Below, piece by piece: positions 9,001 to 27,000 of a stretch of 64,000 nucleotides of DNA (its first letter is position 1; every line of letters starts with the position of its first letter). A program made the position numbers. This DNA comes from Escherichia coli (lineage in GTDB: Bacteria; Pseudomonadota; Gammaproteobacteria; Enterobacterales; Enterobacteriaceae). The DNA lies in the NCBI RefSeq assembly GCF_003334335.1, contig NZ_QOWQ01000028.1; one strand, given 5' to 3'.

Positions 9001-12000
9001 GATTCCGCTGCTGAATACCACCCAACAACCGGCGCTTGCCGAAATGCGCGATCGTGCGACGCGTGAAAAACTGTTTATTGCGGGCTGGACGCGAGCGGAA
9101 AAAAATGATGCCAATGATACCCGCGCTATCATTCAACGTCTGGTGGAGATCCGTGCACAACAGGCAACACTACTTGGTTTTCCTCATTATGCCGCATGGA
9201 AAATCGCCGATCAGATGGCAAAAACACCTGAAGCAGCACTTAACTTTATGCGGGAAATTGTTCCAGCGGCGCGTCAACGTGCGAGCGATGAATTAGCCTC
9301 CATACAGGCGGTTATCGATAAGCAGCAGGGCGGGTTTAGCGCGCAGCCGTGGGACTGGGCATTTTATGCGGAACAGGTACGGCGGGAGAAATTTGATCTT
9401 GATGAGGCGCAGCTCAAGCCATATTTTGAATTAAACACGGTGTTAAATGAAGGTGTATTCTGGACCGCGAATCAGCTCTTCGGTATTAAGTTTGTCGAAC
9501 GTTTTGATATTCCTGTCTACCATCCTGACGTTCGTGTGTGGGAAATTTTTGATCATAATGGCGTGGGGCTGGCGTTATTTTACGGTGATTTCTTCGCCCG
9601 TGATTCAAAAAGCGGCGGTGCATGGATGGGCAATTTTGTTGAGCAATCAACGCTTAATAAAACACATCCGGTAATTTATAACGTCTGCAATTATCAGAAA
9701 CCCGCTGCCGGTGAGCCTGCGTTGTTACTCTGGGATGATGTCATAACCTTATTCCATGAATTTGGTCATACGCTGCACGGCCTTTTTGCCCGCCAGCGTT
9801 ATGCCACGCTTTCCGGCACCAACACGCCGCGTGATTTTGTCGAATTTCCGTCGCAAATCAACGAACACTGGGCAACGCATCCGCAGGTATTCGCTCGCTA
9901 CGCCCGGCATTATCAGAGCGGGGCAGCAATGCCTGACGAACTGCAACAGAAAATGCGTAATGCCAGCCTGTTCAACAAAGGGTATGAGATGAGCGAACTG
10001 CTTAGCGCCGCACTTCTCGATATGCGCTGGCATTGCCTGGAAGAAAACGAAGCAATGCAGGATGTCGATGATTTTGAATTGCGGGCGCTGGTGGCGGAAA
10101 ATATGGATCTTCCTGCTATACCGCCACGCTATCGCAGCAGTTATTTCGCCCATATTTTTGGTGGCGGATATGCTGCAGGTTATTACGCTTATCTGTGGAC
10201 GCAAATGTTGGCCGATGATGGTTATCAGTGGTTTGTTGAGCAGGGCGGATTAACGCGTGAAAATGGGCTGCGTTTTCGCGAGGCGATCCTTTCCAGAGGT
10301 AACAGCGAAGATCTGGAACGCCTGTATCGACAATGGCGCGGTAAGGCACCTAAGATTATGCCGATGCTGCAACATCGTGGCTTGAACATATAAACACCAC
10401 CAATGGCTGGCCTGAGATATCGCCAGGCCAGCCTGGTTATAGCAGTAATTGCAGCAGCTGGGCGAGGGCAAACCTCACCGCTAAAGCTAATACCGTTTCG
10501 CAGTCGCCAGCAAAATGCATAACCGCAGTGTAGTTCTGGCCTTTAATATGCCACGCAAACCAGACGGTACCCGCTGGCGTACCATCTTCACCGCCCTCCG
10601 GTCCGCCGTAGCCGGTAATGGCAATACTGACATCAGCATCCGCACGCTCTATGGCACCGGTTGCCATTTCTGCTGCCACTTTCTCACTCACCGCAGAATA
10701 TCGTTCAAGAGATTGCTGGCTTACGCTGAGGATTTTCATCTTTGCCTGATCGGTGAAAGTAACAAAGCCTGCACCGTAAAATTTGGGTGTATCTTCAGCT
10801 GCACACAGGGCGCTAGCCAACTTACCGCCGGTGCATGATTCGGCGGTAGTTAAGCGTAATTGATCCGCGATAAGTCTTTGACTCAACGCGGATGTCAGGT
10901 TTTCAATAGTATCGGTATCTACAAGTTGTACAATTTTATCTCTATTAATGTTCACTGTTTTTTGTCCACGCTTTTATATGTAAAGGTGATTTGCTTTTTC
11001 TGTATGCTCGTCCAATATAATAATTTTCAAACATATAAATCCGATTATTCTGAAAATATGTTTAAGACTTTTCAATCTTCTTAACTTTAGTGAGTTAAAT
11101 TCTCTGTATATTTGACAGCTAGTTGGCTGATTTTAAATGCCTTATAACAATTGGCAATATTCTTATTTGGCAATTATAAAAATAGCAACCAGACTTAATA
11201 AGTCAAACCAAACGCAATTAAGGAGTTAGTATGAAATTTCAGGCCATTGTATTAGCAAGTTTTCTTGTCATGCCTTATGCGTTGGCAGATGACCAGGGCG
11301 GTTTAAAACAGGATGCAGCGCCACCGCCGCCTCATGCAATAGAAGATGGCTATCGCGGAACCGATGATGCAAAAAAAATGACCGTTGATTTCGCAAAAAC
11401 CATGCACGATGGCGCTTCGGTTTCACTACGCGGTAATTTGATTTCTCACAAAGGAGAGGACCGTTACGTTTTTCGCGATAAGAGCGGTGAAATTAATGTC
11501 GTTATTCCTGCGGCCGTCTTTGATGGACGAGAAGTTCAGCCGGACCAGATGATCAACATTAGTGGCAGTCTGGATAAGAAAAGCGCGCCGGCCGTCGTTC
11601 GTGTCACTCATTTGCAGAAATAAAAATAAATTAGCCTGATGGCCTGAACTACTGGGCCATTAGGGTATTGGGTTATGCTATTTGTCATCCTTTTATTTAC
11701 GATAATGCAGAGGTAATTTACAGAATTAAACACTTTTTTATCCGCTGATTTTGTTTTAAATCACAATGTTATCTCAGAGATGACTCATAACTTCGGATTT
11801 CTATGAAAATATTGACGTAATTTTGCTTTTCTCTCGTTAGAATAGCGCGCACAAGGAACTGTGAAAAAGGAGTGGCAATGATCAAGAAGACAACGGAAAT
11901 TGATGCCATCTTGTTAAATCTCAATAAGGCTATCGATGCCCACTACCAGTGGCTGGTGAGTATGTTTCACAGCGTGGTCGCGAGAGATGCCAGTAAGCCA

Positions 12001-24000: not shown

Positions 24001-27000
24001 TTATTGTGTCGGTTATTGCCTCGGTAGTCATTGGCGGAGCGGGGAGTCTGGCGTTCCCGCTGCCTGCATTAATCTGGTGTGCAGTGCGCTATACGCCGCA
24101 GGTAACATGTCTGTTGACCTTTGTCACCGGTGCGGTGGAAATCGTACTGGTGGCAAATTCGGTGATTGATATCTCGGTCGGTTCGCCGTTCTCCATTCCG
24201 CAAATGTTCTCCGCACGTCTCGGTATTGCCACGATGGCGATATGCCCAATTATGGTTTCTTTTAGCGTGGCAGCGATCAATTCGCTAATGAAGCAAGTTG
24301 CGCTGCGAGCCGACTTTGATTTTCTGACTCAGGTTTACTCACGGTCCGGTCTTTATGAGGCGCTGAAAAGTCCATCGCTGAAACAGACACAACATCTGAC
24401 TGTCATGCTGCTTGATATCGACTATTTCAAAAGCATTAACGATAACTATGGACATGAATGTGGCGATAAAGTGTTAAGCGTGTTTGCCCGGCATATTCAG
24501 AAGATTGTCGGTGATAAGGGGCTGGTGGCGCGAATGGGCGGCGAAGAATTTGCTGTTGCAGTGCCGTCGGTGAATCCTGTCGATGGTCTGCTAATGGCGG
24601 AAAAAATCCGTAAAGGCGTTGAACTGCAACCATTCACCTGGCAACAAAAAACGCTTTATCTCACGGTAAGTATTGGCGTCGGTAGTGGTCGCGCATCGTA
24701 CCTAACGCTGACCGATGACTTTAATAAATTGATGGTCGAAGCCGATACGTGTCTGTATCGCTCGAAGAAAGATGGGCGCAACCGTACCAGCACTATGCGT
24801 TACGGTGAGGAAGTTGTCTGACATCTTTATTCATTACGCGCGATTTGAATGCAATGTGTTCTACCACTTTATGATCCAGGAAAAGGCGTTTTTCCTCGAT
24901 TAAACCATGATCCGCGCCACACTTTTCTCATAAAACTGCTCATTAATCATCAGGAGTTGATCAAAACAGGGGTTCGGCGTATTAAAGTTTGCTAACCTGT
25001 CGTACCAATTCAAACAGGTTGTATGACTAATCAGAAGGGAACCCATTGTGAAAACACTAAATCGTCGCGATTTTCCCGGTGCACAGTATCCAGAACGTAT
25101 CATTCAGTTTGGTGAAGGTAACTTCCTGCGCGCCTTTGTTGACTGGCAAATCGATCTCCTGAATGAGCACACCGATCTGAATTCTGGCGTGGTCGTTGTT
25201 CGTCCGATTGAAACTTCATTCCCGCCGTCACTGAGCACGCAGGATGGTCTGTACACCACCATTATCCGTGGCCTGAATGAGAAGGGGGAAGCGGTCAGCG
25301 ACGCGCGTCTGATTCGCTCGGTTAATCGTGAAATCAGCGTCTACAGTGAATACGATGAATTCCTGAAACTGGCGCACAACCCGGAAATGCGCTTTGTTTT
25401 CTCTAACACCACCGAAGCGGGTATCAGCTACCATGCGGGCGATAAATTCGATGACGCGCCAGCGGTAAGCTATCCGGCAAAACTGACCCGTCTGCTGTTC
25501 GAACGCTTTAGCCATTTCAACGGTGCGCTGGATAAAGGTTGGATCATCATTCCGTGTGAGTTGATTGACTACAATGGCGACGCGTTGCGTGAACTGGTGC
25601 TGCGCTATGCGCAAGAGTGGGCACTGCCAGAAGCATTTATTCAATGGCTGGATCAGGCTAACAGCTTCTGTTCTACGCTGGTGGACCGTATCGTTACCGG
25701 TTATCCGCGCGATGAAGTGGCTAAACTGGAAGAAGAACTGGGTTATCACGATGGTTTTCTCGACACCGCTGAACACTTTTACCTGTTTGTGATTCAGGGA
25801 CCGAAATCCTTAGCGACTGAACTGCGTCTGGACAAATATCCGCTCAACGTGCTGATTGTTGACGATATTAAACCGTACAAAGAACGCAAAGTGGCAATCC
25901 TCAACGGTGCGCACACCGCGCTGGTGCCGGTGGCGTTCCAGGCAGGGCTGGATACCGTAGGTGAAGCGATGAACGATGCTGAAATTTGCGCATTCGTTGA
26001 AAAAGCTATCTACGAAGAAATTATTCCGGTACTGGATTTGCCTCGTGATGAACTGGAATCTTTCGCCAGTGCAGTCACCGGGCGTTTCCGTAACCCGTAC
26101 ATTAAGCATCAGCTGCTGTCTATCGCGCTCAACGGTATGACCAAGTTCCGCACCCGCATCCTGCCACAGCTGCTGGCAGGGCAGAAGGCAAACGGCACAC
26201 TTCCGGCGCGCCTTACTTTCGCATTAGCGGCATTGATTGCGTTCTATCGTGGTGAGCGTAACGGCGAAACATATCCGGTACAGGACGATGCACACTGGCT
26301 GGAACGTTATCAGCAACTCTGGAGCCAGCATCGTGACCGTGTTATCGGCACCCAGGAACTGGTAGCGATTGTTTTGGCAGAAAAAGACCACTGGGAGCAG
26401 GACCTGACGCAAGTGCCTGGTCTGGTCGAGCAGGTTGCTAATGACCTGGATGCGATTCTCGAAAAAGGGATGCGCGAAGCTGTACGTCCGTTGTGCTAAT
26501 AACACCGTTACTTCTGAACCCGGTTTCGACCGGGTTTCTTATTTCACCATATTAGTTACAACATCCTATATGCCTTTATCATTAACAGGTGCCACATGCA
26601 GCGCCTGCTAATGTTGTAAGCTTGTAGGTAATTTGTAAGTAGCGTCTTGAGAATGTGATCTTAATCACGTTTAATAGGGCGACTTTTCCACGCCTGAAGA
26701 TAACCATGATTGTTCGTCCACAACAACACTGGCTGCGCCGTATTTTTGTCTGGCACGGCTCAGTATTATCCAAGATATCCTCGCGCTTACTACTCAATTT
26801 TCTCTTTTCTATCGCTGTTATTTTCATGCTGCCCTGGTACACGCATCTGGGCATCAAATTCACCCTCGCACCGTTCAGCATTCTCGGTGTCGCCATCGCC
26901 ATTTTTCTTGGTTTTCGTAATAATGCCGGGTACGCCCGTTACGTTGAAGCGCGAAAACTTTGGGGGCAGTTGATGATTGCCTCACGGTCGTTACTGCGCG

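Follow-up and report, generated by a model that had tools for sequence, protein, structure and literature searches.

Do two GGDEF genes lying close together on an Escherichia coli chromosome amount to two working diguanylate cyclases, and does their closeness carry any meaning? We considered this question for dgcZ (ydeH) and dgcF (yneF), which are separated by 11.1 kb and together span 12.9 kb in a 64,000-nucleotide (nt) stretch of E. coli contig NZ_QOWQ01000028.1 (RefSeq assembly GCF_003334335.1), here called the window. A preliminary description of this DNA had presented the pair as two diguanylate cyclases. Both ends of the interval it gave proved exact (dgcZ ATG at 11878, dgcF stop at 24821), and the Pfam GGDEF domain is full-length in both proteins. 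Calling both genes cyclases was an overstatement: dgcF here is the remnant of a cyclase gene, not a cyclase, being truncated at its 5' end, classed as a pseudogene by the NCBI Prokaryotic Genome Annotation Pipeline (PGAP) and unexpressed in K-12. We put the probability at roughly 90% that the pair consists of one functional cyclase gene (dgcZ) and one dead gene (dgcF), linked by position only. The 15 kb around the two genes were compared with a set of 5,426 complete E. coli genomes.

The truncation of dgcF was mapped by alignment to a full-length allele, and the following features, one per line, describe what is left of the gene.

23835..23836, plus strand: junction of a 498-bp deletion, from alignment to positions 3936-4433 of the full-length allele L002
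23836..24821, plus strand: dgcF (yneF) remnant, the last 986 of the 1,419 nt of the full gene (alignment, PGAP)
23835/23874-24821, plus strand: dgcF (yneF) as annotated, with a PGAP partial coding sequence from 23835 and the annotated open reading frame (ORF) from TTG 23874
24309..24785, plus strand: GGDEF domain of the DgcF remnant, ORF residues 146-304 (Pfam PF00990, E 3e-40)
24537..24551, plus strand: active site (A-site) GGEEF of the DgcF remnant, ORF residues 222-226 (read from the sequence)

Of the deleted 498 bp, 65 bp lay ahead of the dgcF start, and the rest ran from the ATG through codon 144 and one base further; no microhomology was seen at the junction in the alignment to L002. Homology restarts at codon 145. 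The annotated 315-codon ORF begins at TTG 23874, which is Leu158 of the full protein, and therefore corresponds to residues 158-472; relative to this start, the first 157 residues are absent. Upstream of the remaining homology the frame meets a stop at 23784-23786, with no ATG or GTG available, and TTG 23874 is the sole possible start. The 25 nt before it contain no Shine-Dalgarno sequence of the AGGAG- or GGAGG-like type. Two sigma-70-like sites precede full-length dgcF; both fall within the deletion and the window retains none, sigma-70 scans of this kind being weak evidence when taken alone. PGAP labels dgcF an "incomplete; missing N-terminus" pseudogene in all nine of the deletion-bearing genomes inspected, adding "partial in the middle of a contig" in genomes nearly identical to the window. 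We note that annotations conflict on this point, as record NC_000913.3 lists b1522 as an ordinary 315-aa coding sequence from the TTG and PGAP calls the identical sequence a pseudogene. Judged by its parts, dgcF in this DNA has neither a complete N-terminal domain nor an intact, translatable gene.

Comparison with full-length homologues indicates what the deletion removed. The closest relatives in a protein search, from E. coli and E. fergusonii, were 472 aa long, those of E. coli including a 90%-identity cluster with 9,487 members, and the DgcF homologues of Citrobacter and Enterobacter measured 478-482 aa. Across 25 homologues from three genera, the missing N-terminal 157 residues rank with the best-conserved parts of DgcF. 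Hydropathy and a low-confidence AlphaFold model suggest that the lost part contains about five of the roughly ten helices of the membrane domain; the model was built from the 25 homologues and, with a mean predicted local distance difference test score (pLDDT) of 63.5 and much of the membrane part scoring under 50, was used for the helix count only. The remnant would thus be membrane-associated solely through the four or five helices left of a domain of about ten. The earlier account of dgcF as a membrane-anchored GGDEF protein stands as regards membrane association, which runs through a partial domain only, and falls as regards an intact cyclase. The membrane domain of full-length DgcF had no Pfam match and no NCBIfam equivalog. 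A match to GdpS was considered for this domain and set aside, as it reaches into the membrane part but its score is driven by the GGDEF domain.

Full-length DgcF proteins (EAEC 55989, O104:H4, EHEC O157:H7 and Shigella flexneri; EAEC and EHEC denote enteroaggregative and enterohaemorrhagic E. coli) differ from the remnant almost entirely in the missing part. Their C-terminal 315 residues are 99% identical to it, with two substitutions, Q110E and L277R (ORF numbering), and the GGDEF domain is shared, with an intact A-site and no inhibitory site (I-site). Only the full-length form has the 157 extra N-terminal residues, about five extra helices, its own promoter and an ATG. An extended yneF has been described in EAEC O104:H4 and EHEC O157:H7 (Richter et al. 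2014, PMC4287979), and in the full-size YneF about 300 residues at the N-terminus were reported to form a hydrophobic domain, with the A-site intact, the I-site missing and expression weak and RpoS-dependent (PMC4287979). Full-length Shigella dgcF, when expressed in Shigella, increases cyclic diguanosine monophosphate (c-di-GMP).

The state of dgcF in this window is that known from K-12. The 15-kb stretch was matched in 5,425 of the 5,426 complete genomes, with at least 80% of it present in 5,355. It differs from K-12 MG1655 at nine positions and from strain Z1323HEC0011 at a handful, so the window is E. coli chromosome of a K-12-like lineage, yet not K-12 itself. Despite these nine differences over 15 kb, the 986-nt remnant and the junction are base-for-base those of MG1655 b1522, the upstream DNA back to 23362 is also identical to K-12, and yneG lies upstream in both. 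In K-12, yneF has been described as 5'-truncated by a deletion, with a misannotated start, and as unexpressed in W3110, where lacZ fusions were negative (PMC4287979). DgcF protein was likewise undetectable across the K-12 growth cycle, and the dgcF of 55989 was used for interaction tests (Sarenko et al. 2017, PMC5635695). Since the remnant and junction are identical to those of MG1655, these expression results should carry over, and we infer that the window's strain behaves like K-12 in this respect.

The deletion is much more widespread than K-12. Sarenko et al. 2017 (PMC5635695) worded it as occurring "specifically in K-12". We found the 498-bp segment, which marks the full-length allele, in 4,197 of the 5,426 genomes (77%), and the exact deletion junction in 1,216 (about 22%), so that segment-bearing and junction-bearing genomes together account for 5,413 of the set. 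The junction was searched with a 40-mer (window positions 23816-23855, 20 nt per side), which cannot seed on full-length alleles; an 80-nt query was unusable, as its halves were joined on full-length alleles 498 bp apart. Carriers include isolates from human stool, pig, calf, frog and Galapagos seawater. The presence of the junction in this many genomes, natural isolates included, shows that the deletion is not K-12-specific; it is best described as one old event that became fixed in a lineage extending beyond K-12. We also compared the remnant in eight deletion-bearing natural isolates and K-12 with five full-length alleles. The remnant was open in all nine, which differed by 0-6 nt, too little divergence to judge relaxed selection. 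Among the alleles viewed, one genome (L017, NZ_CP049198.1, strain E686, positions 669-2583) had both yneG and a full-length dgcF annotated as frameshifted, through either assembly error or real decay.

Taken as a sequence of steps, the loss of dgcF most likely proceeded as follows. A single ancestral 498-bp deletion took 65 bp of promoter-proximal DNA along with the start codon and codons 1 to 144, and the lost codons are predicted to encode about five of the roughly ten helices of a conserved membrane sensor domain. The remnant ORF stayed open but can begin only at a TTG lacking a Shine-Dalgarno sequence. With the promoter and start codon gone, and with them half of the domain that would normally dimerise and regulate the protein, dgcF makes no detectable protein.

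Unlike dgcF, dgcZ is an intact gene for a zinc-sensing cyclase. Its features are as follows.

11878-12768, plus strand: dgcZ (ydeH), intact, 296 aa, ATG 11878, stop 12768 (RefSeq name dgcZ)
11855..11871, plus strand: dgcZ leader with two GGA motifs, at 11855-11857 and, within the Shine-Dalgarno sequence, at 11869-11871 (read from the sequence)
11941..12144, plus strand: chemoreceptor zinc-binding (CZB) domain of DgcZ, residues 22-89 (Pfam PF13682, E 8e-7)
12265..12726, plus strand: GGDEF domain of DgcZ, residues 130-283 (Pfam PF00990, E 6e-45)
12493..12507, plus strand: A-site GGEEF of DgcZ, residues 206-210 (read from the sequence)

The Pfam CZB and GGDEF matches and the NCBIfam equivalog NF007380 (522 bits against a cut-off of 256, positions 1-296 of 296) bear out the earlier identification of dgcZ as a cytoplasmic CZB and GGDEF protein. 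The encoded protein matches PDB 4H54 over all 296 residues, the sole difference being residue 52, where the crystallised protein carries an engineered C52A, and it is identical to PDB 3T9O (CZB domain) and PDB 3TVK (GGDEF domain). Residues H22, C52, H79 and H83 are present. These four we take to be the zinc ligands (3His/1Cys), at positions reportedly given by Zahringer et al. 2013. The gene therefore has a full CZB domain as its complete input and dimerisation domain, is intact and translatable, and encodes the dimer that was crystallised. Compared with K-12 DgcZ (YdeH), the window protein shares its sequence, CZB and GGDEF architecture, GGEEF motif and position next to mgrR and mgtS, and we found no difference.

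The activity and control of DgcZ are known from published work. Synthesis of c-di-GMP by DgcZ is established in the literature, and the protein serves as a positive control enzyme. It has been described as a constitutive dimer, held together through the CZB domain, that is active by default and inhibited by zinc binding (PMC5635695, among others). In the window's strain, DgcZ would accordingly be expected to act as a cytoplasmic CZB-GGDEF enzyme that converts two GTP to c-di-GMP, with zinc binding to the CZB domain as an allosteric off-switch. Its regulatory region has been reported to contain CysB sites, CpxR sites and two CsrA sites (PMC13131220), and expression would be controlled through CpxR and CysB sites and by CsrA acting on the leader GGA motifs. 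The two GGA motifs in the leader are consistent with the two published CsrA sites. A search for the CpxR-box consensus GTAAA-N5-GTAAA, allowing at most one mismatch, gave no hit upstream of dgcZ and a window-wide count near that expected by chance, and a simple sigma-70 scan likewise gave no sites upstream of dgcZ. Since the consensus scans recovered no CpxR box, we take the CpxR and CysB sites solely from the literature.

We then considered whether the two GGDEF domains themselves differ. The GGEEF motif is kept in both proteins (DgcZ 206-210, DgcF ORF 222-226), as the preliminary description had proposed. Against PF00990, DgcZ scored 153 bits over model positions 2-161 of 161 and the DgcF ORF 138 bits over positions 1-161 of 161, and each protein scored about 130 bits against TIGR00254 (cut-off 37.4). 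When DgcZ and the DgcF ORF were aligned with WspR and with two full-length DgcF proteins, the metal- and GTP-binding columns (D-x-D of LLDIDxFK, N/D of xxND and K/R of KxxGRN) were invariant. The GGDEF domain of the remnant thus looks catalytically complete, and a check of the GGEEF motif alone would miss the truncation.

The preliminary description had also proposed checking both proteins for an I-site. We defined this as an RxxD motif whose last residue stands six positions ahead of GG(D/E)EF, and two positions correspond to it.

12466..12477, plus strand: I-site position of DgcZ, R197-D-Y-E200 (RxxE), from ungapped alignment to PleD and DosC and alignment to WspR
24510..24521, plus strand: I-site position of DgcF, G-D-K-G (no RxxD), aligned to WspR RSSD and DgcZ RDYE

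DgcZ has RxxE in place of a strict RxxD, and the site is absent from DgcF. Ungapped HMMER alignments placed the DgcZ stretch S-W-T-R-D-Y-E-T-V-Y-R-Y-GGEEF over S-N-V-R-A-I-D-L-P-C-R-Y-GGEEF of PleD (RAID), and also over N-V-R-S-S-D-Y-V-F-R-Y-GGDEF of DosC (RSSD), while BLASTP of DgcZ against WspR set R-S-S-D in the same register as R-D-Y-E. The DgcZ motif is a conservative variant of RxxD, with the arginine retained and aspartate replaced by glutamate. We found no published comment on the DgcZ I-site in the literature searched, and the RxxE assignment comes solely from the alignments. Compared with product-inhibited cyclases of the PleD and WspR type, DgcZ and DgcF have the GGDEF fold, GGEEF and catalytic residues in common, but PleD and WspR carry the canonical RxxD where DgcZ has RxxE and DgcF has GDKG. 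The input domains differ as well, being Rec in PleD and WspR, CZB in DgcZ and a polytopic membrane domain in DgcF.

Among competing explanations, the least unlikely is that truncated dgcF still works. Read-through from sad-glsB-yneG, followed by initiation at the TTG or an internal ATG, would produce a sensor-crippled, membrane-associated cyclase that feeds the c-di-GMP pool conditionally. We regard this as improbable, but several observations weigh on its side and against a dead gene. The expression evidence comes from K-12 and not from the window's strain, and the K-12 reference record annotates b1522 as an ordinary coding sequence; in K-12 itself, however, the protein was undetectable across the growth cycle (PMC5635695) and the lacZ fusions were silent (PMC4287979). 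The remnant ORF is open, with all catalytic residues, in nine of nine deletion genomes plus K-12, but this carries little weight in a lineage that has diverged by 0-6 nt, too little for visible decay. Read-through is possible, as no terminator-like hairpin lies in the 73 bp between yneG and the remnant on the same strand, but no Shine-Dalgarno sequence stands ahead of TTG 23874. Internal starts have a precedent in the Shigella dgcE, dgcQ and dgcN pseudogenes, which still yield c-di-GMP despite upstream stops, and the K-12 yneF ORF is among the ASKA-library matches of an oxidant-resistance screen. A product made in this way would lack about five conserved input-domain helices, and most isolated E. 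coli GGDEF domains fail to dimerise alone (PMC5635695). A related idea, at best as improbable as the one just described, is that the remnant has become a lineage-specific, "rewired" source of c-di-GMP that escapes signal control through loss of its sensor half, about 22% of sequenced E. coli genomes having carried the remnant intact; the context of read-through from sad-glsB-yneG may then be PtrR/putrescine and RpoS. A dead dgcF beside a functional dgcZ remains our preferred explanation.

The remaining part of the question concerns the closeness of the two genes. Genes were mapped from the RefSeq/PGAP annotation of near-identical genomes, together with the K-12 annotation transferred onto the window.

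11231-11623, plus strand: ydeI (annotation)
12814-12911, plus strand: mgrR small RNA (K-12 annotation mapped)
12883-12987, minus strand: mgtT (annotation)
12987-13082, minus strand: mgtS (annotation)
13209-14396, minus strand: ydeE (annotation)
14591-15490, plus strand: eamA (annotation)
15521-16608, minus strand: marB, marA and marR (annotation)
16820-17485, plus strand: marC (annotation)
17510-18700, minus strand: ydeA (annotation)
18850-19965, minus strand: yneK (annotation)
20043-20924, minus strand: ptrR (annotation)
21025-22413, plus strand: sad (annotation)
22477-23403, plus strand: glsB (annotation)
23403-23762, plus strand: yneG (annotation)
25048-26499, plus strand: uxaB (annotation)

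The genes dgcZ and dgcF belong to separate transcription units, and sixteen protein genes and one small RNA gene, on both strands, lie between them. The neighbours named in the preliminary description (mgrR, mgtT, mgtS, ydeE, eamA, marBAR, marC and ydeA) are all found there. When 12 cyclase, 19 GGDEF or 29 GGDEF/EAL genes were placed at random on a 4.64-Mb circle, the probability of at least one pair within 12.9 kb was 0.31, 0.62 and 0.90, respectively. DgcZ and DgcF are 31% identical, in the GGDEF domain only, and so are old paralogues and not a recent duplication. Shigella flexneri keeps dgcF and has no dgcZ, and dgcZ is absent from Citrobacter rodentium (PMC13131220). The two thus do not form a co-functional cluster or operon, being separated by genes on both strands, lost independently and spaced in a way compatible with chance.

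Could the region still be a selected, functionally coupled stress-signalling island made up of both cyclases, marRAB, mgtS/mgrR and the exporters? This seems very unlikely to us, more so than a working remnant. The gene order over 13 kb is kept almost throughout E. coli (5,355 of 5,426 genomes with at least 80% of the 15 kb), but within a species such conservation reflects shared descent and not selection for linkage. Several of the neighbours respond to stress, but the intervening genes also include metabolic ones unrelated to it (sad, glsB and ptrR), and dgcF has been inactivated in about 22% of E. coli genomes with its neighbours untouched. Regulation differs too, with CpxR, CysB and CsrA acting on dgcZ (PMC13131220) and weak RpoS-dependent expression described for full-length dgcF (PMC4287979), and the two proteins are old paralogues (31% identity) whose input domains are of different kinds. 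Chance placement would be expected to yield such a pair, and the two genes are lost independently, as described above. The closeness of dgcZ and dgcF is what chance gives, and the "dense stress-signalling neighbourhood" of the preliminary description has neither statistical nor genetic support, given chance spacing, old paralogy, separate regulation and independent loss; its own caveat that no functional linkage was claimed agrees with this outcome.

The converse idea, in which the 315-aa form came first and a 498-bp insertion produced the 472-aa form, has next to no chance of being right, as nothing beyond the K-12 reference annotation, which takes 315 aa as the gene, speaks for it, whereas the short form lacks an ATG or GTG start and a ribosome-binding site and the outgroup comparison rejects it, with 472-482 aa in E. 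fergusonii, Citrobacter and Enterobacter and an N-terminus that aligns over its whole length with many invariant residues.

The properties of dgcZ and the truncation of dgcF in K-12 were already known. The identical deletion junction in 1,216 of 5,426 genomes, from many natural sources, is a small addition to the published accounts, and it recasts the deletion as a lineage-wide natural loss of one cyclase that could be used as a marker and is relevant to comparisons of biofilms across phylogroups. A practical consequence is a correction to counts of c-di-GMP enzymes, since this sequence or the K-12 annotation gives 12 cyclases, of which only 11 can be made. The locus opens no new question on c-di-GMP signalling.

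Other features of the window were observed along the way. Directly downstream of dgcZ, mgrR (a PhoP-regulated small RNA) lies antisense to the 3' part of mgtT, and a terminator-like hairpin within it (12885-12904) is followed by a T-run. The Rfam family STnc560 matches 12780-12993 with 281 bits, its 214-nt model extending well past the 98-nt annotated mgrR. The genes mgtS and mgtT share a single base, where the former ends and the latter begins. Together, the small genes at 12780-13082 form a compact overlap.

Besides dgcF, decayed genes occur at several points, and the window contains at least five (dgcF, yneO, ydfJ, a helix-turn-helix fragment and ydeT). The window begins in the degraded end of a prophage (1-4726), with nohA, tail-fibre fragments, tfaQ and the pinQ invertase, and an Rfam IS009 match at 1187-1385. 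At the border of this prophage, ydfJ (3443-4726) is marked "missing N-terminus" and is apparently truncated. A large autotransporter gene of the ECSE_1600 family (yneO/ydeK in K-12; 37642-43061) is broken into two ORFs (1,302 aa and 516 aa), whose overlap lies at 41511-41550, because of a 1-bp gap relative to Z1323HEC0011, in which the 5,421-nt gene is intact; it is another lineage-typical pseudogene. Downstream of hipBA, positions 45184-46873 hold a frameshifted helix-turn-helix fragment and the fimbrial usher gene ydeT without its N-terminus, ahead of intact ydeS, ydeR and ydeQ.

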